Notes: generated by a model not told the origin, from the letters alone. A stretch of DNA of 64,000 nt from Kiritimatiellia bacterium (GCA_017481725.1 JAFUOX010000051.1:7638-71637), one strand, 5' to 3'; counted from the first letter of the stretch, positions 52,008 to 64,000 are shown. Made by a program: numbers and translations.

Positions 52008-52733
52008 TTATCCCTTGTTTTTATTATATTCAACGATTTCTTTTGCATGAGCAAATTCTTCTGCAGAGAGTGCTGGAGTATTTGTAAGTGGGTCTGCTAT
52101 ACCCAAAGACTCCCATTTACTTGCTCCAAGCTTATGATATTTAAGCAAGTCTAATTTTTCCACACAGCTATATTGCTTGGCAAGCTTACCTACCTCAATT
52201 AAGGATGCTTCGTCATAGGTAATTCCTGGCACAACAACGTGTCTTAACCACACACGCTTGCCTATACTTTCACAAAACTCAAGCGTTGCAAGTGCATTTT
52301 CATTCCCCTGCCCTGTTAGTTCCTTACAGGCAACTGAACAAGGTGATTTAATATCAAGCAAAAGCATATCAGCAAGCTCAATTGCTTTACTACTTTTATT
52401 TAATGGAATTGCACCAGATGTATCTATTGCTGTGTGGATTCCTGCATCACACAAAAGACCAAGCAGTGCCTCACAAAAACCAGCTTGCAATAAAGGCTCA
52501 CCGCCACTCAAAGTCACTCCACCTGTAGCAATATAACTTCGACAGCGCATTATCTTATCAAATACAGCACCTGCTGTATATTCCGTACCTCCATTGCTAG
52601 GCCAAGTATCAGGATTATGACAAAACTTACAATGCAAAGGACAACCCTGCAAAAAAACAACATAGCGGACTCCGGGACCATCTAGGGTCCCGAAGCTCTC
52701 AAATGAATGTATGCGACCCTTACAGCTTCTCAT
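52008..52733 (-). CDS. pflA: Pyruvate formate-lyase activating enzyme (radical SAM)
   Basis: Motifs [15 protein letters not shown] (CxxxCxxC) and [13 protein letters not shown]. The likely start Met at 52733 overlaps the pflB end. Confidence 0.9.
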
Positions 52734-54963
52734 GGAAGGTACGACTAATAACATCCATCTGCTGCTCGCGAGTTAGCTTAACAAAGTTAACTGCATAGCC
52801 AGATACACGAATTGTCAGCTGAGGATACTTTTCAGGGTAATCCATCGCATCGAGGAGCACATTGCGGTCAAGCACATTTACATTCAAATGATGTGCACGA
52901 TCCCCAAAATAGCCATCCATTAAAGCAATTAGATTTGCTCTCTGCTCTGCCAAATTTGCACCGAGTGACTCTGGAACAATTGAGAATGTATTTGAAATAC
53001 CATCCTCTGCACAATGATATGGAAGTTTTGATACAGAGCGAAGTGATGCAACAGCACCATTTGTATCGCGGCCATGCATTGGGTTTGCTCCTGGAGCAAA
53101 TGGCTCACCTGCCATACGTCCATCTGGTGTAGATGCAGTCTTCTTTCCGTACATTACATTTGATGTAATTGTGAGAATTGAAATTGTTGGTTTTGCCCCT
53201 CGATATGCATGATGCTTAGCAAACTTCTTATAGAAGCTACGAACCACATCAACAGCAATCTGATCAACACGATCATCGTCGTTACCAAACTTAGGGAAAT
53301 CTCCCTCTATCTTAAACTCTACTGCCAAACCGGACTCATTGCAAATTGGTGTAACCTTTGCATACTTAATTGCAGAAAGACTATCTACAAGCACAGATAA
53401 ACCAGCTATACCACCGGCCATTGTACGCAAAATCTTATCATCGTGCAATGCCATCTCTATACGCTCATAGCAATATTTATCATGCATATAGTGGATGATA
53501 TTCAATGTATCCATGTAAAGCTTTGCTAGCCACTCTGTAACTTTCTCAAAGTTAACCATAACTTCAACAAAGTCAAGTGGGCGCTTATCATCACTCAACA
53601 CACGTAGCTCTGGACCGACTTGCTTGTTATCCAGCTTTACATCCATACCACCATTGATGGCATAGAGAAGAGTTTTTGCAAGATTTACGCGGGCACCAAA
53701 GAACTGCATCTGCTTACCAATACGCATTGCTGAAACACAGCAAGCAATACCATAATCATCGCCAAATAGTGAACGCATCAAATCATCATTCTCATACTGA
53801 ATTGATGAGGTCTTAATTGACATCTCTGCACAAAAGCGCTTAAAGCCCTCAGGCAAGCGTTGACTCCAAAGCACTGTTAGATTTGGTTCTGGAGCAGGGC
53901 CAAGATTACGAAGTGTATGTAAGAAACGGAAGCTCATCTTTGTGACTAGAGGGCGTCCATCCACGCTCATACCACCGATTGACTCCGTTACCCATGTTGG
54001 ATCACCAGAGAATAGTTCATCATAAGCAGGCACACGCAAGAAGCGAACAATACGTAGCTTCATAATGAAGTGGTCAACAATTTCCTGCACCTCGCTCTCT
54101 GTAATTATGCCCTTTCTTAAATCATTTTCTGCAAAGCAATCAAGGAAGGTTGAGATACGCCCAATTGACATTGCTGCACCATTCTGCTCCTTAACAGCAG
54201 CAAGGTATCCAAGATATAGCCACTGAACCGCTTCCTTAAAGTTCTGTGCTGGACGTGTTACATCAAAACCATAACTAGCAGCCATCTCCTCAAATTCATG
54301 AAGAGCCTTAATCTGCTCAGCTGTTTCCTCACGCTTCTGGATTAGACCGCTGTCCATAACATCGCGAATCATCTCATCCTTAGCATGCTTCTTCTGCTCA
54401 ATCAAAAATGCTGTGCCATATAGTGCAACACGGCGGTAGTCACCAATGATTCGACCACGACCATAAGCATCTGGCAAACCAGTGATAATGCCCGCATGGC
54501 GAGCTAGCTTCATCTCATCTGTGTAAGCATCAAATACACCATCATTATGTGTCTTACGATATTTGAAGACATTGTCGATATCAGCTGGGAGCTCACGCTC
54601 ATAAGTTGCAAGCTGTGTCTTAACAAGTCGAATACCACCAAATGGCATAATTGCACGCTTCAATGGAGCATCTGTCTGTAGACCTACAATTTGCTCTAAA
54701 TCTTTGTTGATGTAGCCTGGCTTATGAGAGTTAATTGTTGAAATTGTATTCTCATCAATATCTAGCACATGCCCCTTAGCAACTCTCTCCTCTTCCATCT
54801 TTTCCTTAAGCTCAGCCCAAAGCTGCTTTGTACGCTCTGTTGGTGGAGTTAAGAAACTATCATCACCATAGTATGGAGAGAAATTACGAAGAATAAAATC
54901 ACGAACATCTATTACTCGATTCCAAGCACCTGAATTAAAATCATCATTATAAATTTCCATCAT
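52720..54963 (-). CDS. pflB: Formate C-acetyltransferase (pyruvate formate-lyase)
   Basis: 747 aa. Active-site GIACCVSA and glycyl-radical motif [11 protein letters not shown]. Confidence 0.95.
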
Positions 54964-55244
54964 AAATCACCTCATTTTCTCAAAAAAATTTGGTAAAAAA
55001 AGCCCACCTACTTAAGCAGGCACTAAGAGATATATTTGTTTTTTAAATTATCCTATTTTTACGGATAAAAAGCAATAAAAATATTTCTCTTTTTTACTTT
55101 AGTAAAAAGGCGAAAAAACAAGACAAAATAACATAAATTAAAATAGGGACAGAACTAAGGCTTTTCTCAAAATTTGGAAATAAAAAAAGCCACTTGACTA
55201 TCGTATTTACACATAGTTAAATGGCATTGATAATAAAATCAAAA

Positions 55245-55320
55245 TGGTGGGCCTCCAGGGATTTGAACCCCGGACCAAGGGATTATGAGTCCCCTGCTCT
55301 GACCACTGAGCTAGAGGCCC
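55245..55320 (-). tRNA. tRNA with CAT anticodon: elongator Met or, given its resemblance to ileX-type sequences, Ile2 (lysidine)
   Basis: Minus strand reads GGGCCTC-TA-GCTC-AGTGGTCA-GAGC-A-GGGGA-CTCATAA-TCCCT-TGGTC-CGGGG-TTCAAAT-CCCTG-GAGGCCC-A-CCA. It is not initiator-like (G1-C72 pair, A31-T39). Confidence 0.9.
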
Positions 55321-55331
55321 GTATAAAAAAA

Positions 55332-55385
55332 TGGCGGAAGAGCCAAGTTTCGAACCATCGGACATCCGTTTACCTCAACAGGACA
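55332..55385 (-). pseudogene. tRNA 3'-end relic (T-loop-like + acceptor 3' strand + GCCA), not a complete tRNA
   Basis: Minus strand reads ...CCGATGGTTCGAAACTTGGCTCTTCCGCCA. There is no complementary 5' acceptor strand (GGAAGAG) upstream, and the T-stem does not pair. Confidence 0.35.
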
Positions 55386-55631
55386 AAATTTATGATAGGC
55401 GAACTTGAAATCTGCTATTCTCTACTCTTATAGAGAACGCGGCTATTACATCATACTTCATAATTTTTGCTTTGATTCTCTATTCCTCTCCACAATATCG
55501 CTTCTTTTTCTCTATTTGTAATCTTTAGTTGGTTTTATCCTATTACGGTTTTCACTCTTCTATTTAAACCAATATTACCCTTACATTTTACACGGTTTTC
55601 AATGCCGCAAAGTTTACCCCATCAGTCTCAA

Positions 55632-55985
55632 TCAGCCAAATCGTTTTCGCAATTCCAACTCAGTAAGTATAATCTGGGGTATTACAACGATGAGAGGCAA
55701 CAGCAATGTTACGCAGATATCATACAGCATCAAATAGTCAGAATTAATGCAAAGGCTATTTCGAAACAAGTGGGCGGCGGCCGCTACGATCAAAGCCGCC
55801 AAACCAAATATCGTCATCAATTTTGCGCTATACCTCTGTGCAAAATCCCAAGCCTCCTGGCTCTTGCACGAACGTGTAGTACGATAAAATCCATAGAGTC
55901 TATTGATCTTTTTCGGCGGATACATCCAAAATACAACTCCCACCACCGTCAAAATCAAAGCGCTGATATAATATGTATACGCCAC
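55632..55985 (-). CDS. SdpI/YhfL family small membrane protein
   Basis: 117 aa, 3-4 TM. Motif NRLYGFYRTTRSCKSQEAWDFAQRY, typical of the SdpI family. Confidence 0.7.
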   Translation of the reverse strand: MAYTYYISALILTVVGVVFWMYPPKKINRLYGFYRTTRSCKSQEAWDFAQRYSAKLMTIFGLAALIVAAAAHLFRNSLCINSDYLMLYDICVTLLLPLIVVIPQIILTELELRKRFG

Positions 55986-56007
55986 TATTAACCTCCCTAG
56001 TTTCGAC

Positions 56008-56841
56008 TTAATCCATCGCTGCTACAATCTTACAAATCAATTCGTTCGCCCATGTGACGGCCTCGGCGGCGCTCGGCAAGACGTCACCATTGTCGAGAAG
56101 ATTGTTTCTCGCCTGCACATAGAGATCTTCCCATGAAGGCAACGCTGTCACTACCGCCGGCCATGATTGCCGCCGGCGATAGTCGAAGAGCCGCTGACAA
56201 ACGTCTTTCACCTCGGCATAGTCGATTTGGGACCGATTGCAAATGAGCTGCAGATCGATAAGATCATGCGCCCGTTCGCTCCCCGGTTCGGAAACGGCGT
56301 GAAGCTTCTGCGCAATCTGGTAGGCAAGCTTCATAACCGGAAGCGGCTTGGGTTGCGGGAACGAGAGTTTCTCAAACACATCAGCAAGGTCAGAAGGTAA
56401 CGATGTTTCAAACTCATCCGCATCGCCAATCTCATTGTGCCCGATTTCGATGCGAATTGTCTGCCACGGACGCCCGTAATAATTGAGTTTGATGTCGTAA
56501 GGCATCATCACATAAGCGCTCGGTACGCCCACAGGTTGCGGTGGCTCAACAGCTACAAGCCTTCCAGTAAAACCGTTCCAACCATGTGATAGTGCCTCAT
56601 TTAACTGTTTAAGATATGATTCAAGCTCCATAACCCGCGCCGTGTCAATATCGCGTGTATAGCGTGAACCATATCGGCCATAACGAAACAATAGCGAGCT
56701 GCCGCCTTTAACCACTCCATCTGGCAACATTTGCGCAACAATAACATTGGCTATCGCGCGAGATAGATGCACAGGATCCTGTCCAACGGACAATGTCCCA
56801 ATAGCCTTAATCAGATTGACACACGTAAGAGGACGTTTCAT
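56008..56841 (-). CDS. Nucleotidyltransferase AbiEii/AbiGii-family toxin (type IV TA / abortive infection)
   Basis: 277 aa. Motif VKGGSSLLFRYGRYGSRYTRDIDTAR (GG...R.T.DID NTase). Overlaps the upstream antitoxin gene by 4 nt (ATGA). Confidence 0.85.
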   Translation of the reverse strand: MKRPLTCVNLIKAIGTLSVGQDPVHLSRAIANVIVAQMLPDGVVKGGSSLLFRYGRYGSRYTRDIDTARVMELESYLKQLNEALSHGWNGFTGRLVAVEPPQPVGVPSAYVMMPYDIKLNYYGRPWQTIRIEIGHNEIGDADEFETSLPSDLADVFEKLSFPQPKPLPVMKLAYQIAQKLHAVSEPGSERAHDLIDLQLICNRSQIDYAEVKDVCQRLFDYRRRQSWPAVVTALPSWEDLYVQARNNLLDNGDVLPSAAEAVTWANELICKIVAAMD

Positions 56842-57368
56842 ACAGAAAACTCCTTCTTTAAGGCTTCATACTCAAAGACATCCAACAATCCTTTCGTTCC
56901 TGCCTCATGCACTGCCGACACAAGGCGTTCAGTCAGGATCTTGCCCCTCGACAGACGGATAACCTCTGACAACTTCTGGCAAGGTATTCCATTAAAATTA
57001 TCTTCGGTCATTTCAGATGTTGCTTTTTCGGTCTCAATCCAATCCGGTAACTCCTTGCGAAGCCGACGTCTGACAGCAACATGTACACGTACTGGATTGA
57101 CCAATGCTAAATTATGCATTGCCAATACACTCTCGCCGCAAATCATCGCCGTATCCCCCACTAAAGCAACGGCCTCTGCATATGTGTCATATTCCGTCGG
57201 TAAATAATGGGCTATCCGATAAACTCCTCGACCACGTTTTTCAAGCCGCCCGCTCTTGACCCACTCAAGAACATCCTTTAGATGGATGCCAAGCTCGTCA
57301 ATCGTCTTAGCCGTTACCAAACCATAATTAGAGACGGCAACTTCATATAATTCGTCATACTTCTTCAT
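56838..57368 (-). CDS. AbiEi-family antitoxin / transcriptional regulator
   Basis: 176 aa. N-terminal wHTH pattern GLVTAKTIDELGIHLKDVLEWVKSGRLEKRGRGVYRI. Sits upstream of, and is translationally coupled to, the AbiEii gene. Confidence 0.8.
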   Translation of the reverse strand: MKKYDELYEVAVSNYGLVTAKTIDELGIHLKDVLEWVKSGRLEKRGRGVYRIAHYLPTEYDTYAEAVALVGDTAMICGESVLAMHNLALVNPVRVHVAVRRRLRKELPDWIETEKATSEMTEDNFNGIPCQKLSEVIRLSRGKILTERLVSAVHEAGTKGLLDVFEYEALKKEFSV

Positions 57369-57378
57369 GTCATTTTAT

Positions 57379-57469
57379 TACCTATTTGGGTAATGTTTTG
57401 GTTTATAATATATCATAAATCTTCGTAATCGGCAACCCCTTGTATCAAATTATTACCTATAAAGGGTAT
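57379..57469 (-). promoter_or_regulatory. Candidate abiE promoter/operator: two TTACC-N6/7-GGTA(A) inverted repeats embedded in an ATTATTACCTAT direct repeat
   Basis: ttattacctatttgggtaa at 57376-57394 and ttattacctataaagggta at 57450-57469, about 74 bp apart, directly upstream of the abiEi start. Confidence 0.3.
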
Positions 57470-57476
57470 ATTTTGA

Positions 57477-57635
57477 CTATTGACAACAACCAAAGAGAAA
57501 ATAATTGTCCTTCAAAATAATACGACTATCTATAATTGTCAAAACAACAATAGTTCCAAAATAGAAATACATACAGACTATTGCGAGCAATAAAACTCCT
57601 CCAAAAATAGAAAAAATTTTAAATTTCAGTTTCAT
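57477..57635 (-). CDS. Possible 52-aa single-TM peptide
   Basis: My own translation: MKLKFKIFSIFGGVLLLAIVCMYFYFGTIVVLTIIDSRIILKDNYFLFGCCQ. No clear SD sequence. Below the ORF-track length cutoff. Confidence 0.3.
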   Translation of the reverse strand: MKLKFKIFSIFGGVLLLAIVCMYFYFGTIVVLTIIDSRIILKDNYFLFGCCQ

Positions 57636-57691
57636 ATCTAATTTTCTATTTTATATATATACATATATATGAACAATAAACTGGAATACTA

Positions 57692-58024
57692 TTATTCTTC
57701 TTGTATGATTGTTATTGTATACTCACCGAAATTTGGCATCCCTCTCATTAACCAAACATCATACTTAACATAAAGATTAAAACAATCAGAAATAAAAATT
57801 AAAACTAAACAAATAATGGACAATAGAAAAAGAGTCTTTGATCCTTTAAATAAGAGAATATTAGTTATCCCTAAAATCATAGAAATTAAAGTAGGTATAA
57901 GATAACTATAAAAACCACCCCCATGATTACTTGGGTAACTCCACCAAATTTCAAATACCATATCTACTAAAATTATAGACATTATTATTATAAATAACTT
58001 TTCGATTTTTTTTATAATATTCAT
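57692..58024 (-). CDS. Small 3-TM membrane protein, paralog of 58128-58496 (candidate immunity protein)
   Basis: 110 aa. SD AGGAAAT precedes the ATG. Shares the motifs P.NH..G.F and Y(D/E)VW..RGMP..G.Y with the neighbouring ORF. Confidence 0.6.
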   Translation of the reverse strand: MNIIKKIEKLFIIIMSIILVDMVFEIWWSYPSNHGGGFYSYLIPTLISMILGITNILLFKGSKTLFLLSIICLVLIFISDCFNLYVKYDVWLMRGMPNFGEYTITIIQEE

Positions 58025-58127
58025 TTTTTATTTCCTATTGAGGATGCTCCTCGCATGGTTCTCTAGCTCTCCCCAAGTTATATCACCTATACAAAAACCT
58101 TGCGGTATTAGGGTTATTCATTCATGA

Positions 58128-58496
58128 TTAATATGTGGGAAAAGAATATGGAGATGAAATTTCACCACTTTTTTCTTCAACTTTGTATGTGCCCCATGAA
58201 GGCATACCTCGATCTGTCCAAACTTCATAAGGCACAAGGATATTAAAGTTATGCTCTATTACAGGAATTGTAAAAGTCAAGGAATAAACAATCCAAAACA
58301 ATATGCAAATTTCTCGCTTACGTATCGAGTACACCACCTCAAACAAAGCTAACACTCCAACACATGGTCTAAAATCAAAGAACATACCGTCCGTGTGATT
58401 GCACGGAAATCTAAGTATAATTTCACCTAAATGTAATAGCAAAACACCTAACAACTCATAAAAAATTATATTTGTTTTTGTGAATTTAATATTCAT
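58128..58496 (-). CDS. Small 3-TM membrane protein, paralog of 57692-58024 (candidate immunity protein)
   Basis: 122 aa. SD GAAGGGTGA. Motifs RFPCNHTDGMFFDF and VPYEVWTDRGMPSWGTYKV. Confidence 0.6.
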   Translation of the reverse strand: MNIKFTKTNIIFYELLGVLLLHLGEIILRFPCNHTDGMFFDFRPCVGVLALFEVVYSIRKREICILFWIVYSLTFTIPVIEHNFNILVPYEVWTDRGMPSWGTYKVEEKSGEISSPYSFPTY

Positions 58497-58531
58497 AATA
58501 TATCACCCTTCATTTAGGAAATTTTATGGCT

Positions 58532-58771
58532 CTACTTTTTCGCCTTTTTTCTTGTAAGCCATATAATATTATAAACTAGAGTAAAACAAATAATAATTAG
58601 AGCAACCCAATCTAATATTTTTACCCTCAGAGTTTCTCCTTCAGTAACATATATTGCATGAGAGATTGATAAAATATGTGCTCCAATTAACAACAAAATA
58701 AATGTACATAAAAAACTGAATATTTTGTTGTCGGAATTAAAAATCTTCTTTCTATTCTTATTCCATCCCAT
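58532..58771 (-). CDS. Small 2-TM membrane protein; candidate cognate immunity protein of the decayed toxin
   Basis: The track ORF starts at 58819, but that stretch overlaps the toxin-relic frame. The Met at 58771 (MGWNKNRKKIF...) overlaps the relic's stop (TATGGGATGGAATAA), a typical toxin-immunity coupling. Confidence 0.5.
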   Translation of the reverse strand: MGWNKNRKKIFNSDNKIFSFLCTFILLLIGAHILSISHAIYVTEGETLRVKILDWVALIIICFTLVYNIIWLTRKKAKK

Positions 58772-59424
58772 AATTAATTGCTCCAATCGCCCAGAAAATA
58801 CAATTGTGAAACACTCCATGATAAAATGGTGACTTTTTTATTTCTTCTCGTATCATTTTCAACATTTTTATATCCTGTTCAGGTGTTGAATGGAATGAAA
58901 TTGGTGACTTCAAATGCATCCCATAAGATTCATTAATCGTGCCTTTATCGATAATATTAACTTTAAGATATTCATAAAACTTTGATTAGGACCAAAATCA
59001 AGTGTTATTTCACCTACTTTATACAATTTACCATCATGACATATCCAATCATCTACAGCAACACCAACATGTATTTGTTTTCCTCCTGAACCTCAATAAT
59101 TTAATATGTCAAATTGAGTTATATATCTATTCTTGCCTAATATATCAAAAAACTTATTCCATCATTCTCACAGAACGCATATAGATTGATGCCACCATCT
59201 TCTTCGATTGGGTCGCGGTTAAGCCAACGCATCAGAGTAGGATGATAGAAACGGTAACCATAATAATATAGGCATGTATCTGTGTCAAGATATTTGGTTG
59301 AATAACGATGGCGGAATGTGTTAGCTAGTAAGCCACTTTGTGCGATTGTGTTACCGAATGCATCGTAAGTGTATTGTGCGACCACATTACCATTTGAGTC
59401 TAGGTAATGAGTGCTAATAGACAA
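58758..59424 (-). pseudogene. Orphan, 5'-truncated Rhs/YD-repeat core end fused to a papain-like (His...Cys) C-terminal toxin domain; disrupted by 2 frameshifts and 1 stop
   Basis: Track ORF 59137-59424 reads YTYDAFGN...YLDTDTCLYYYGYRFYHPTLMRWLNRDPIEEDGGINLYAFCENDGIS. After a shift in the A6 run (59147-59152) it continues FDILGKNRYITQFDILNY. After TGA (59093-59095) it reads GSGGKQIHVGVAVDDWICHDGKLYKVGEITLDFGPNQ. After a further shift near 58990 it reads SKFYEYLKVNIIDKGTINESYGMHLKSPISFHSTPEQDIKMLKMIREEIKKSPFYHGVFHNCIFWAIGAINYGME. Confidence 0.65.
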
Positions 59425-59643
59425 ACATCGTTTGAATATGATTTTACTATACTGAAGATAATCCTTTCTTCCTTGCTTGTAGAAAATTGTGATGATTCTA
59501 ATTGACCTACAGAAACAACCCCTTGTGACTCAGCAAAACAACTAACAACAGATTGTCCATAGATTTTTTACCTGAAGATCATCCATGACACACCAATTTC
59601 CTTTTTTGCTCTTGACCTGTCTTAGAAAATCTTTGAAAACTCT

Positions 59644-60276
59644 TCAATTTAAATCAAACAGACCATTGAGTGGCTCTAATAATCCACGGTTCCGATATTC
59701 TTGTGGTGGGAAAAAATATCCACTAATATATAAATACAATGAATTGCTTTTTGTGTTCATACAAATATACATATGAATTACCTTTTTTATTTCGATAGTC
59801 CCTTCTTGGTCAGAATATTTAAATTTTATATTAAAATAATCTTCCCATATAGCTTTTTCATCTTCATGAGGAATACTACTACAAATAATCATTGAAGATA
59901 AATCATAAGTGTTTCCTTGATTTACGTTAATCAAGTTGTTTTTTGAACGAGAATTAATTAAATTAAATAAATCAAGTGACGAAGAATCTGATTCATCAAT
60001 TTTGTATTTAATTAATTGATTACCATCCATTCCTATTGACAACTGTCCATCAATATATGTTAAACAAGAAAAATTTTCCCCAAAAACATTTTCTTGAATT
60101 ATAGAACTTATTTCAGTGTTTTTGCTGATACGAAAATATGTGGTTTGAAACCTCGTTAAAAACCAAAAAACAAAAATAATAATACCAAAGCCAACCACTA
60201 CTATAATCAATGAAATGATTAGATATTTTACCATTTTTTCATACACACTTGGTGGTCGACCAATAAATTTATCCAT
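59644..60276 (-). CDS. N-terminally membrane-anchored protein of unknown function
   Basis: 210 aa. TM helix YLIISLIIVVVGFGIIIFVFWFL. No recognisable motif. AT-rich. Confidence 0.5.
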   Translation of the reverse strand: MDKFIGRPPSVYEKMVKYLIISLIIVVVGFGIIIFVFWFLTRFQTTYFRISKNTEISSIIQENVFGENFSCLTYIDGQLSIGMDGNQLIKYKIDESDSSSLDLFNLINSRSKNNLINVNQGNTYDLSSMIICSSIPHEDEKAIWEDYFNIKFKYSDQEGTIEIKKVIHMYICMNTKSNSLYLYISGYFFPPQEYRNRGLLEPLNGLFDLN

Positions 60277-60422
60277 TTTTGCTCCTTGTTTTATAATTCA
60301 ATTTTTTACGGCTCTATTTTTTTTTCCAATTTAAATAAACATATTTTCTTTTATTGTTGAAGTTATGCAAATGGAATTAGTATCGAATATGGGTAAATTT
60401 ACAGACAAGATACTTGTGTTAT

Positions 60423-61121
60423 CTAAATAGACATATAATGACATATAAAAAATAACAATGCCGTTATAAAAATAATGATTACCCATTCTTTAAAACGCGT
60501 AAAAATTTCCTTATATTTCCAATGCCATATAGGTGTTGGTTCTTCTTTAATTGTATCAATTAATTCCACAGATGATATTGATTTTACTTGTGATATAAGT
60601 GTTTCATAAATCGTTTTATCAATTTGCTCATCATTTGTATAAAAAGAATATGTATAAGACCAATTATATGGATGAGGATTTGGTGAATCAGACCAATTCT
60701 CTAGAGATATTATGCATATTACCTCATTTTCTTTAATTATTCTAATCTCTGTTGGCTCGTCTAACTCATCTACAGAAATATTTGTCTTAGACTTAAAAGT
60801 ATTTTCCCACGAATTAAAAGGAACATATAAACTGCTATTATCTACCTCGACAATTTCTAAATCTGCAGACATATTTACGACTAAATTATTTATAAATTCC
60901 CAAAATATATTGTTATAAGTAATCTCCCAATTATCATAAAAATCCTCCTTTTTAATGATTAAGGCTGTTCGAAACATCTGTTTTTTATGTTCATTTAATT
61001 TTGGTGTAGAACAATAACGATTAAACCCTTTACAAATATATATTTCTATATTCTCGTTCTTAGATAGTCGAGAATGTCTCCTCATTTTATACATATGGTT
61101 TTGATTCAGCTCTTTATACAT
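60423..61121 (-). CDS. Unknown protein: one copy of a novel ~190-aa domain plus a C-terminal TM helix
   Basis: 232 aa. Motifs IYICKGF, FRTALIIKK, LENWSD, YSFYTN shared with both halves of 61106-62284. C-terminal WVIIIFITALLFFICHYM. The start may be Met10 or Met13. Confidence 0.6.
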   Translation of the reverse strand: MYKELNQNHMYKMRRHSRLSKNENIEIYICKGFNRYCSTPKLNEHKKQMFRTALIIKKEDFYDNWEITYNNIFWEFINNLVVNMSADLEIVEVDNSSLYVPFNSWENTFKSKTNISVDELDEPTEIRIIKENEVICIISLENWSDSPNPHPYNWSYTYSFYTNDEQIDKTIYETLISQVKSISSVELIDTIKEEPTPIWHWKYKEIFTRFKEWVIIIFITALLFFICHYMSI

Positions 61122-62284
61122 ATAACGCCAATACCATTTAGGAGATAATTCTTCCGTAATTTCAGAAACGAGTCCAACAATGGAATTATTTCATCAATTA
61201 CCTCTTTAGAAATTATATCATTTGTATGAGTTTCAAAAGTGTAAAATGACAATATATATGATTCCTTATAAAGATCAGAATTATCGCATTCAACGGCAGA
61301 CCAATCTTCTAAAATTGCCTCAGATACAATACTGCCATTTTTTTCAAAATATATCCTTATTGGATAATAAGTGTCAAATTCTTGGTTTTTTGCTTCACAC
61401 GAATTTAGATATTCTGTCAAATCGGAAATGGTTTGCAAATACTTTATTTTTTTTTGCGTGCGGATAAAGCAAGTTGTAGCTAGTGACTTATTGACTATTG
61501 ATAATACTTGAAAAATTAAATCAAGATACAACTCAATACCATCAACAAAAGCCTGTTTTTTAATTATAAACCCTGTTCTAAATAGTGTTTTGTTATTCGT
61601 AAAACTTACTGGTAATGCTACCTTATTATTAAATCCTTTAGAGATGACTACCTCTATTTGTTTTTTGCTTAATAATGAATTTCTTATGGTTGCCCCTCTT
61701 GGTCTTTTGTTCTTCCATAAATTATTTAAGAAAAACCAAATCAAATTAGGTTGCTTAAATTCATCTATCCTTTTTACAATATTCACTGTGTTTGAATTTT
61801 TATTTATAAATTCATTTATATACTTTATGATTTCATTGTTTATATTCTCTTTATTGCTATAGAAGGATAATACCCATGAGCTATTATAAACATCTATCTG
61901 GTCAACATCTGTCCAGTCTTCAACAGATAATATAAAATTTGTGTCTCTGTCTTTTATAAATCTAAATTTGATAGGATTATAGGCTCGTTGAGCTTTGTTT
62001 TTTATAGATCTACTTGATATTAAATCCAGTAAACTATTATATGATTCTAATGCAATATAATTGTTGTTAGAGAATGAGACTTTAACCTTAGTTCCAAATT
62101 TTTCTGCAAAAAATTCAAAAATGGATTTTAAAATGGTATCATATATTGAAAAATCATCTAAAAATGAGCTACTCTTTAAAATAAGAGCTGTTCTAAATTT
62201 AGACTTACGAAATAGATCAATTTTTATTGGAATAAAAAATGGAGAAAAACCTTGGCAAATGTAAGCATTAATCTTATTTTTCAC
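61106..62284 (-). CDS. Unknown protein: two tandem copies of the same novel ~190-aa domain
   Basis: 392 aa with a GTG start. Half 1 motifs: AYICQGF, FRTALILKS, VEDWTD, LSFYSN. Half 2 motifs: VVISKGF, FRTGFIIKK, LEDWSA, LSFYTF. Confidence 0.6.
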   Translation of the reverse strand: MKNKINAYICQGFSPFFIPIKIDLFRKSKFRTALILKSSSFLDDFSIYDTILKSIFEFFAEKFGTKVKVSFSNNNYIALESYNSLLDLISSRSIKNKAQRAYNPIKFRFIKDRDTNFILSVEDWTDVDQIDVYNSSWVLSFYSNKENINNEIIKYINEFINKNSNTVNIVKRIDEFKQPNLIWFFLNNLWKNKRPRGATIRNSLLSKKQIEVVISKGFNNKVALPVSFTNNKTLFRTGFIIKKQAFVDGIELYLDLIFQVLSIVNKSLATTCFIRTQKKIKYLQTISDLTEYLNSCEAKNQEFDTYYPIRIYFEKNGSIVSEAILEDWSAVECDNSDLYKESYILSFYTFETHTNDIISKEVIDEIIPLLDSFLKLRKNYLLNGIGVICIKS

Positions 62285-62391
62285 AACAACCTCGTTTGTT
62301 TATGAGATTTTCTATTGTTGGTTCCCTTGCTTCTCCCAATACATATCTGCTAGAACCACTACCATAAAACCGTAGATAAACATCGCTTAAC

Positions 62392-62814
62392 TCATTTGTA
62401 ATCGTTATTGTCATCATAAAAGTCAGAATACCTTTGATGATAAGAATAAATGTATATATGGTTCTCTTTACCGTATGAATATTGTATTATACCATCATTA
62501 GAATAAAAGCTAAATGGAGAAAAATTATATACCTCTCTCTCATAAATTCCAAATACATTGTTTAATGACAGCCCCTTTTTTTGGCAAATTTTATTTATTA
62601 TATCTGATGGAATGAAAAAATAGTGATTAGGCTTACTTTTTTCCCATTTTTCTATTTCAGGTGCTATAGTTTTAACTTCATCAAATGATATTTCACACAA
62701 TAATCTTGGTTGAAGAGTATTTAAATACAACCAAAGCCAGATATTAACAAAGAGGAGCAAAATACTTATGATAATTTGTTTTTTAGAGAAAATCATTAAA
62801 ATTTTGTGTAACAC
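62392..62814 (-). CDS. N-terminally membrane-anchored protein of unknown function
   Basis: 140 aa. TM helix IIISILLLFVNIWLWLYL. No recognisable motif. Confidence 0.5.
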   Translation of the reverse strand: MLHKILMIFSKKQIIISILLLFVNIWLWLYLNTLQPRLLCEISFDEVKTIAPEIEKWEKSKPNHYFFIPSDIINKICQKKGLSLNNVFGIYEREVYNFSPFSFYSNDGIIQYSYGKENHIYIYSYHQRYSDFYDDNNDYK

Positions 62815-62826
62815 TTTTATCTCCTT

Positions 62827-63279
62827 CTAAAAGTCAACTAACACATAATAGTAATCATAGGATTTAAATTTATCAACAAAAATGTAGCAATCAAGATCAT
62901 ATCCGTCTATTTTATATTCAAAAGCAAAACTTTCTGCAGCAATTGTTGGCTTCCACCATGTAGGCAAAATGCCTAAACTAGGGCAAATACTTAAACTTTG
63001 ATTTGATTTAAATTTGTAAGATAATTCGTTAGAGTCGTTTTTTGAAACTTTTATTTTATAGAATAGATAGCACTCAAAAAGACTAGGATATGAATAATAT
63101 TTTTCAACTATATCATATTGATTAAAAAGTGTTTCAACATTAACCTGAAGATTGGAAAGACGTTCCTGTTTTAATTCTTTTTTATTGTCCGCTGTATTTG
63201 TATATATAACGAAGAGTAAAACTGACAATATAAAAATCATTATTCCTACTATTAAATTATATAAAAAATTATCTTTCAT
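62827..63279 (-). CDS. N-terminally membrane-anchored protein of unknown function
   Basis: 150 aa. TM helix LIVGIMIFILSVLLFVIY. No recognisable motif. Confidence 0.5.
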   Translation of the reverse strand: MKDNFLYNLIVGIMIFILSVLLFVIYTNTADNKKELKQERLSNLQVNVETLFNQYDIVEKYYSYPSLFECYLFYKIKVSKNDSNELSYKFKSNQSLSICPSLGILPTWWKPTIAAESFAFEYKIDGYDLDCYIFVDKFKSYDYYYVLVDF

Positions 63280-63328
63280 CTTCTAGATACTTTACTTATT
63301 AATATTATTTAATTGTGCTTAAGTCTTA

Positions 63329-63937
63329 TTATTCTATGGTGTTTATTGGTAAATGTATTAACCATGGCGGAACATTTGTAATATGAATCCCAGCAATATT
63401 TTCATCAGCAGATATTTCACTAGGTATTTGTGTTATATACATATAGTTCTCTTCTGGCCAATAATCAACACTCAACGCAGTGAAAGATGGAAAAAGTAGT
63501 GTTCTTAGTAATAGATTATCTACCCACTTCGGTGTTACATATAAAAAACCTGAATAATGTTTCTTTTTGTAATCTAAATCATTAATGTTTTTAAATGTTG
63601 AATCCTCAATTTTTCTTTCAAAAGTAGAACATTCTTTTGCGTTCATCCAATGTATCTTTTTATTATTATCATATGCATTAAATTTGAATCCAAACACTAA
63701 ATCACCTTGTGGGATAGCGTAATTTGATGCTTTATACCCATATCGTTTATATTTGTTTTTATAATAATCTAACGGGTATTGAGAGTCAAAATGCTCATTA
63801 ATAATCCAATAATCAAAATTATTAACCTTGTATTTATCTGCTAAATAAATAACGCCTTTTTTAGTAAACATACTAAGGACAATCCAAATGATAGCAAATG
63901 AGAATATAACAAATAATGTCTTATGATTTCGTTTCAT
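63329..63937 (-). CDS. N-terminally membrane-anchored protein of unknown function
   Basis: 202 aa. TM helix LFVIFSFAIIWIVLSMF. No recognisable motif. Confidence 0.5.
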   Translation of the reverse strand: MKRNHKTLFVIFSFAIIWIVLSMFTKKGVIYLADKYKVNNFDYWIINEHFDSQYPLDYYKNKYKRYGYKASNYAIPQGDLVFGFKFNAYDNNKKIHWMNAKECSTFERKIEDSTFKNINDLDYKKKHYSGFLYVTPKWVDNLLLRTLLFPSFTALSVDYWPEENYMYITQIPSEISADENIAGIHITNVPPWLIHLPINTIE

Positions 63938-64000
63938 AATTAGTTTTATTTAACAAATAATGTAGAGTATGAAAAATGTGGACTAGATGCGAAAGATTTT

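Follow-up and report, generated by a model that had tools for sequence, protein, structure and literature searches.

Arrays of orphan rhs C-terminal (CT) toxin/immunity cassettes are known downstream of rhs genes, the orphan rhs of Salmonella Typhimurium being one example (PMC3967940), and the layout of Rhs loci has been summarized recently (10.1101/2025.05.08.652813). Orphan immunity islands have been described as AID clusters in Bacteroidales (10.1101/471110) and as staphylococcal antitoxin islands with orphan exiCD (PMC12744356), and immunity paralogues of type VII secretion systems (T7SSs) can stand in strings (10.1101/2022.01.07.475358). Glycine-zipper toxins that depolarize membranes come with dedicated immunity proteins, as in the case of S. 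aureus EsxX with ExiAB and ExiCD (PMC12744356), and ionophoric CdiA-CT toxins provide a further example (PMC11630599). Here, we analyze the AT-rich end, positions 57477–64000, of a 64,000-nt stretch of DNA from a Kiritimatiellia bacterium, hereafter the window. We consider it likely that this segment is the distal end of a polymorphic-toxin island and a graveyard of displaced toxin/immunity cassettes in which the protective genes have been retained.

As in orphan rhs arrays, the window holds a 5′-truncated Rhs core end, followed by a variable C-terminal toxin and then by a small overlapping open reading frame (ORF). Relatives of this bacterium (contigs L024–L026) show the textbook arrangement of a full-length Rhs, an immunity gene, and several orphan Rhs fragments (L numbers designate the contigs from metagenomes and metagenome-assembled genomes, or MAGs, that were compared). 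Unlike those arrays, the island has no full-length rhs at its head; its Rhs fragment is a dead relic inside a locus headed by a putative non-Rhs toxin, and most of its cassettes are entirely toxin-less. With AID clusters and other orphan immunity islands, it shares putative immunity genes kept without cognate toxins, homologues that sit beside toxins elsewhere, and tandem paralogues. In contrast to AID clusters, no recombinase or mobile element was found at the island, and the lineage (Kiritimatiellae, PVC group) and all of the protein families are different. The island also differs from the AID and T7SS cases in that the predicted toxins are Rhs proteins bearing Sec signals and TSP3 repeats, no markers of type VI secretion systems (T6SSs) or T7SSs were seen, and protection is here a predicted property.

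The GC content of 57477–64000 is 28.3%, as compared to 40.2% for positions 1–55000. Core windows of equal size range from 0.368 to 0.443 (standard deviation 0.016), which puts the segment more than 7 standard deviations under their mean. Every long ORF in the segment is encoded on the minus strand, and the ORFs overlap or are closely spaced. A Kyte-Doolittle scan of the translated ORFs revealed a single N-terminal hydrophobic segment in p202, p150, p140, and p210, and two such segments in p79, two to three in p122, three in p110, and one in p52. Searches against Pfam, NCBIfam, PADLOC, and PHROG returned no family match for p202, p150, p140, p392, p232, p210, p122, or p110. An earlier note on this DNA had remarked on the low GC content, the packed one-strand layout, the four single N-terminal anchors, the four tiny proteins with one to three transmembrane segments, and the lack of an assignable motif, and all of these observations held. 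At 28% GC, a stop codon is expected from composition about every 12 codons; because ORFs of 150–210 codons are not chance occurrences at that composition, we take p202, p150, and p210 to be real genes. Since a promoter and terminator scan found fewer promoter-like sites than in shuffled sequences and no minus-strand terminators, it was uninformative on operon structure. The features of the segment, in the direction of transcription, are as follows.

63329–63937, minus strand: p202, transmembrane segment at residues 7–25; putative orphan immunity gene, so named from position and architecture
62827–63279, minus strand: p150, transmembrane segment at residues 9–27; putative orphan immunity gene
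62392–62814, minus strand: p140, N-terminal transmembrane anchor; 29%-identical homologue (E=2e-21) in L030
62274–62417, minus strand: p47, chimeric scar of two toxin tails and no gene of its own
61106–62284, minus strand: p392, first two of the three tandem immunity-family domains of a 622-aa gene
60423–61121, minus strand: p232, third immunity-family domain plus a C-terminal transmembrane anchor (214–232)
60313–60423, no strand assigned: copy of a ~110-nt repeat, 92–96% identical to the sequence after p187 just past the window end (~64009–64120)
59644–60276, minus strand: p210, transmembrane segment at residues 19–37; final ORF upstream of the orphan Rhs fragment and putative immunity gene whose toxin is lost
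59152–59424, minus strand: 5′-truncated Rhs core end (Rhs_assc_core, TIGR03696 match)
58743–59146, minus strand: Rhs C-terminal toxin relic with one in-frame TGA and two frameshifts
58532–58771, minus strand: p79, two transmembrane segments; its start codon (ATG) and the stop of the toxin relic overlap, which is where a cognate immunity gene would lie
58128–58496, minus strand: p122, polytopic membrane protein and p110 paralogue (28% identity, E=6e-9)
58030–58090, minus strand: degraded scar of a C-terminal toxin tail (..NLGRAREPCEEHPQ..) immediately before p110; p110 homologues in L021 and L027 are preceded by the same tail
57692–58024, minus strand: p110, three transmembrane segments; homologues at 98% (L021) and 40% (L030) identity and a 166-aa relative (L027)
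57477–57635, minus strand: p52, single-transmembrane ORF that ends the AT-rich block

The p622 domain family and its putative Rhs toxin partner

In other strains, p392 and p232 form one protein of 622 aa (p622), and in the window the frame is cut short by a deletion of 7 nt near 61193, by comparison with L007. Two copies of a domain of ~170–185 aa are encoded by p392 and one by p232, and the copies are 26–30% identical. The repeated domain that the earlier note had perceived in two ORFs is thus real and present three times, but the two ORFs are halves of a single gene. Homologues of p622 at 73% and 65% identity are intact, at 619–622 aa. A profile of the three domain copies retrieved 46 clusters among 1.84 billion representatives. 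The family consists mostly of single-domain proteins of 190–215 aa that carry a C-terminal hydrophobic helix after basic residues, suggesting that they are tail-anchored with the domain facing the cytoplasm. An AlphaFold model of p232 built with 30 family members reached a pLDDT of 86.7 and a pTM of 0.79, and a Foldseek search of this model against the PDB yielded no fold match (best E 0.027, TM-score <0.3).

The neighborhoods of p622-domain genes tie them to one type of Rhs C-terminus. P0168 (P numbers designate members of the p232 family) has an 11-nt overlap with the end of a full-length Rhs of 2536 aa with TEN_YD-shell, RHS_repeat, and TSP3_bac domains and a signal peptide, and several orphan Rhs fragments follow this pair on L024–L026. 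Past its core end, the 2536-aa Rhs continues into a ~230-aa domain that is rich in glycine-zipper (GxxxG/A) runs and ends ..TPLEKEEWEVGCEE. P0174 follows an orphan Rhs with the same glycine-zipper toxin (54% identical), and P0172 follows a 2401-aa Rhs that also bears it (42% identical). A 73%-identical p622 homologue comes after a 128-aa fragment of the glycine-zipper toxin (E=9e-35), again with an 11-nt overlap. We then considered 15 JGI metagenome loci in which ≥700 nt of sequence was available upstream. Directly upstream of the p622-domain gene, the full toxin C-terminus was present in 8/15 and only its last 18–26 residues in 4/15; other Rhs ends lay nearby in 2/15, and nothing was found in 1/15. 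Pfam returned nothing for the glycine-zipper toxin.

This association of the family with one Rhs toxin type, directly downstream of it in many independent loci, is the decisive context for reading the p392/p232 domain as an immunity family paired with that toxin, and protection is what the pairing would predict. It bears out the idea, already raised for this stretch, of a toxin/immunity depot. The partner toxin is not present in the window, so the domain has been kept without it, as in an orphan immunity island.

The pairing has features in common with EsxX and the CdiA-CT toxins: an Rhs C-terminus rich in GxxxG/A runs stands beside the p622 family, and the partner is predicted to be membrane-associated. 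ExiAB offers a precedent for a neutralizer on the cytoplasmic side, as we propose for the p622 domain. The differences are that no sequence similarity is detectable, that the scaffold is Rhs rather than LXG or CdiA, and that membrane activity is suggested by the sequence; moreover, unlike the immunity proteins of those systems, the p622 domain appears to be tail-anchored, its fold is unmatched in the PDB, and three diverged copies are fused. In our model, the glycine-zipper Rhs C-terminus is probably membrane-depolarizing, and p622, with three diverged tail-anchored domains facing the cytoplasm, would bind variants of it.

Two family members, P0160 and P0164, extend past the transmembrane helix into a region that resembles the C-terminal part of type II secretion pseudopilins (..DPWGNPYN..SSGPNGINEGGEGDD..), and pseudopilin-like ORFs adjoin the immunity gene in L032 (5938–6540).

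Toxin remnants and the genes kept behind them

The Rhs fragment in the middle of the segment is a relic. Positions 59137–59424 match the TIGR03696 Rhs_assc_core model (E=1e-21), and the core end is 67–69% identical to that of a full-length 1870-aa Rhs on the Kiritimatiellia MAG contig L033. A tblastn search with three Rhs ends found no Rhs similarity upstream of about 59421, and a degenerate Rhs extension upstream of 59424 was accordingly rejected. An intact orphan Rhs of 500 aa in L051 can be aligned with three consecutive frames of the window (59412–59152, 59146–58994, and 58946–58743; joint E=2e-51), and the relic is 52–62% identical to the intact L051 toxin. Conserved motifs of the toxin are centered on His (IHVGVAV) and Cys (FHNC/LHQC). 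The copy in L007 is less decayed, with no frameshift at FFDILG and no TGA. Because Pfam assigned no family to the reconstructed relic toxin or to the intact L051 toxin, an enzymatic class is not assignable. The alignments confirm a truncated Rhs end with a toxin relic, as had been recognized by eye, and they identify it as a displaced orphan with an intact counterpart elsewhere. The intact L051 toxin is likewise followed by a 79-aa ORF with two transmembrane segments, but this ORF has no detectable sequence similarity to p79. We propose that p79 would neutralize the His/Cys-motif toxin whose relic precedes it.

Two further toxins are represented in the segment by their tails. Residues 11–37 of p47 (..VYLRFYGSGSSRYVLGEAREPTIEN..) match the C-terminal end of an unnamed toxin found ahead of p110-family genes on other contigs (L021 and L027), and its final codons, GCCEK*, are similar to those that end the glycine-zipper Rhs toxin (EVGCEE*/EICCEL*). 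Between p47 and the p392 start there is an 11-nt overlap, just as intact toxins overlap their immunity gene. L021 has the order tail, p110 (98% identical), glycine-zipper fragment, p622 homologue, and the p47–p392 junction could have arisen by a deletion reaching from the first tail into the final codons of the second toxin. The earlier note had seen no toxin fragments among the ORFs upstream of the relic, a view that the p47 scar overturns. The evidence for p110 and p122 as partners of a lost toxin consists of the toxin-tail scars; the two proteins would neutralize a third toxin, known from its tail only. The C-terminus of p122 varies between strains, with lengths of 122 and 113 aa.

The homologues of p140, p110, and p232 occur together in another genome. 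The rumen MAG contig L030 encodes a toxin-less trio of p140-like (29%), p110-like (40%, ending EVGCEQK*), and p232-like (33%) proteins adjoining icd and serC. In L033, the full-length 1870-aa Rhs, whose C-terminus has H...NNC motifs, is followed by a transmembrane-anchored 163-aa ORF and then by a p232-family gene, and in L032 a transmembrane-anchored ORF ending ..EVGCEKE* stands before a p232-like gene. Judging from these two layouts, Rhs toxins of this group are usually partnered by small N-terminally anchored proteins. Toxin deletions end just short of the start of the downstream gene in 4/15 of the JGI loci, in L030 and L032, and in the window, end points that fit selection to keep the downstream gene expressed.

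Of some toxin genes, deletion has left little more than a few terminal codons (p47 and the scar before p110), another is broken (the Rhs relic), and the putative protective genes downstream have been kept. As a proposed mechanism, the retained proteins would reside in or on the inner membrane and neutralize incoming toxins of kin or competitors. Within this scheme, p140 would be an envelope-anchored immunity protein whose toxin is gone altogether, and so, with less support, would p202, p150, and p210.

The genes p202, p150, and p140 also lend themselves to a different explanation, namely that they, perhaps together with p210, make up a membrane-associated system of their own that has yet to be described. 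The earlier note had entertained a separate system of this sort; here it would have been inserted between the ~110-nt repeats into a toxin/immunity island. We consider this unlikely. The three genes are tightly packed, with gaps of 49 and 12 nt and no toxin scars between them, none of the four proteins has a family match, and the 92–96% identical repeat copies bracket the block from p202 to p622. The ~110-nt sequence also follows p187 in the MAG contig L019, and it may mark a recombination junction. However, the bracketed block also holds p622, a member of the immunity family, and the sole detectable homologue of p140, that in L030, sits beside p110-like and p232-like genes with neither a p202-like nor a p150-like gene adjacent. 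Small transmembrane-anchored ORFs of this sort come directly after a full-length Rhs toxin in L033 and L032, and none of the proteins has an enzymatic or NTPase motif. The analysis thus gave no support to a separate system. An extended form of the idea seems comparably doubtful: p202, p150, and p140, perhaps with p210, would be an envelope-associated module between the repeats, and PVC-group bacteria would deliver Rhs and non-Rhs toxins independently of a T6SS, through Sec signals and TSP3 repeats, and counter them with a cytoplasm-facing, tail-anchored immunity fold.

The island beyond the window and its flanks

NCBI lists the proteins of the window under a Kiritimatiellae MAG. Contig L001 is identical to the window across 10,672 nt and ends 863 nt beyond 64000, and six assemblies break within ~90 nt of one another at that point. 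L007, which is 98.3% identical to the window and reaches 8.8 kb further, has tandem paralogous genes at the assembly break point, which explains why the break is shared. L017 supplies the next 10 kb beyond L007. Together, these contigs delimit an AT-rich island of ~16 kb, window-equivalent ~57.4 to 73.3 kb, of which the window holds the distal ~6.5 kb; GC is 30.0% over L007 1–15400 and 43% in the island flanks. Between the window end and the island start, these near-identical strain contigs encode, over 9 kb, a 1041-aa non-Rhs toxin-like gene and immunity-like arrays. Housekeeping genes occupy 9.5 kb beyond the island (a pyrD-type DHODH, a dehydrogenase of the isocitrate/isopropylmalate family, PNPase, S15, and PPDK).

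Along the transcribed strand, the order begins with PPDK, S15, PNPase, the Iso_dh-family dehydrogenase, and DHODH, all housekeeping, and then a 133-aa p187-like gene. It continues with the 1041-aa protein, a family A gene (273 aa), an orphan 128-aa fragment, two more family A genes (276 aa, then 272 aa), two family B genes (277 aa, then 263 aa), p187, and the ~110-nt repeat. Next come p202/203, p150, p140, p47, p622, the ~110-nt repeat again, and p210. The Rhs relic, p79, p122/113, p110, and p52 close the island, followed by AbiEi, AbiEii, an SdpI-like gene, tRNA-Met, and pflB.

The earlier note had predicted a full-length rhs/YD gene past 64000. No RHS/YD-shell protein was found in L007 or L017 over the full length of the island as far as its housekeeping flank, and the toxin-like gene that stands there instead, ~5.7 kb past the window end in L007, is not of Rhs type. 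A toxin-like gene is nonetheless present nearby upstream, and neither homologues of the ORFs in housekeeping contexts in many genomes nor an ordinary GC content, the other observations that were to count against a depot, was found.

In the 1041-aa protein, a hydrophobic N-terminal anchor and acidic TSP3-type repeats (PF18884 in relatives) are combined with a C-terminal region that has an invariant HEIGHxCKxxDIY motif, conserved flanks, and a hypervariable core. Its homologues keep the N-terminal ~600 aa at 58–79% identity and carry either the HExxH motif or a PF03068 PAD domain at the C-terminus. The downstream genes covary with this choice: HExxH-type genes (L007 and L018) are followed by family A (272–276 aa, signal peptide), and PAD-type genes (L019 and L020) by family B (258–272 aa, signal peptide). 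The orphan fragment in L007 consists of the last 80–93 residues of another toxin allele, 89% identical to the L018 toxin, and precedes the matching family A partner of that allele (73% identical). L007 also has two orphan family B genes without any PAD toxin. Polymorphic toxin loci with displaced cassettes are built in this way, and the 1041-aa protein would be the toxin here. A PDB sequence search with the 1041-aa protein returned nothing credible.

Several further observations concern this module. Toxin-like proteins of 1041–1130 aa are encoded in L007 1–8688 (window-equivalent ~64.1–72.8 kb), L018, L019, and L020, and within the module Pfam recognizes only the PAD and TSP3 domains, not families A and B. 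The p187 family, which has a signal peptide, occurs on both sides of the toxin module (L007 8125–8688, L017 9587–9988, and L019 9340–9996 and 14322–14765). In orphan fragments, the first 45–64 residues of p187 are joined to the final ~80 toxin residues, which suggests deletions between tandem p187-toxin-immunity units. Genes of the four-helix-bundle family 23S_rRNA_IVP (PF05635) adjoin toxin/immunity modules on two unrelated contigs, L019 (7630–8551) and L021 (145–504).

A number of results weigh against the interpretation of the segment as the end of a toxin island with retained immunity genes. No secretion machinery was seen. The candidate metallopeptidase assignment of the 1041-aa protein comes from one short motif; Pfam found nothing in its HExxH region, and an AlphaFold model of the HExxH C-terminal region built with five sequences was uninformative (pLDDT 28.6). 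BLASTP gave no alignment between p79 of the window and the 79-aa ORF of L051. In the collections searched, p202, p150, p210, and p52 had no homologue outside their own clusters at ≥90% identity, a scan of the genome collection with p202 found no relative, and PDB sequence searches with p202 and p210 gave nothing credible. Position and N-terminal anchoring are what suggest an immunity role for these four, and no toxin remnants lie between p202, p150, and p140.

Two haplotypes were also compared (window 52720–64000 against L007, L012, L013, L015, and L016). Per synonymous site they diverge by 0.087 in pflB, by 0.057 in AbiEii, and by ~0.008 in the island genes, which is ~10-fold lower than in pflB. 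Low synonymous divergence would agree with lineages having recently exchanged the island or with an island much younger than its flank, although this is one comparison with few substitutions. The island genes differ by 23 non-synonymous and 7 synonymous changes, for a pN/pS ratio near 1 from only 30 substitutions. This ratio too weighs against the interpretation: with p622 split in the window strain, some of the island genes may have escaped selection.

Taken further, the same changes could mean that the stretch is mostly functionless decaying DNA, the remnant of a once-active toxin locus without present selection. The frameshifts and stop codon in the toxin relic, the 7-nt deletion that splits p622, the differing p122 C-terminus, and the pN/pS ratio all agree with that explanation, which we nevertheless judge improbable: ORFs of 110–622 codons are still open at 27–28% GC, the p622 homologues at 73% and 65% identity are intact, the p140, p110, and p232 families are conserved at 29–40% identity in a different MAG, and toxin deletions repeatedly halt just before the start of the downstream gene. 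A remnant of a prophage, plasmid, or integrative element, suggested by the position of the AT-rich block near tRNA-Met and beside the AbiE toxin-antitoxin pair, is close to refuted and was rejected, as the 16-kb island has no integrase, recombinase, or phage-like gene, searches for PHROG matches, for DNA matches in phage and plasmid collections, and for relatives in viral contigs were all negative, and the AbiE/SdpI/tRNA segment has a normal GC content (0.434).

On the side of the window core, AbiEi (176 aa, PF13338) and AbiEii (277 aa, PF08843; PADLOC AbiEii E=2e-97) adjoin the AT-rich block at 56008–57368. Two 31-nt direct repeats (TTATTACCTAT..GGTA) that resemble operator sites lie just upstream of the pair at 57370–57475, and strains L008 and L013 have lost part of the pair. 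Between pflB and AbiE (region 55245–55985) are tRNA-Met (CAT; 55245–55320) and an SdpI-family membrane protein (117 aa, PF13630), and neither an integrase nor a direct repeat derived from the tRNA was found that would point to an integrative element. Positions 1–52000 have ordinary carbohydrate-degrading and transport content, including a GH42 beta-galactosidase, a GH38 alpha-mannosidase, GH10, Na:alanine and Na:solute symporters, and a 950-aa Ser/Thr kinase with a double zinc ribbon. Among ten large ORFs scanned there, neither secretion-system genes nor Rhs were seen.

Probable interbacterial-warfare loci in Kiritimatiellae

Loci of this kind, with polymorphic toxins, displaced cassettes, and orphan immunity genes, are well known; the protein families are new, the lineage is unstudied, and our literature search found no paper linking Kiritimatiellae to Rhs toxins. 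The value of the locus is descriptive and leaves the concepts unchanged. It documents interbacterial-warfare loci in Kiritimatiellae, apparently from rumen or gut metagenomes. It defines a putative toxin/immunity pair absent from Pfam, made up of the glycine-zipper Rhs C-terminus and the tail-anchored ~185-aa domain, and p622 would be a natural fusion of three diverged immunity-family domains in one protein. The island also reveals a second, non-Rhs toxin-like scaffold, on which HExxH or PAD C-termini are combined with covarying signal-peptide partners.

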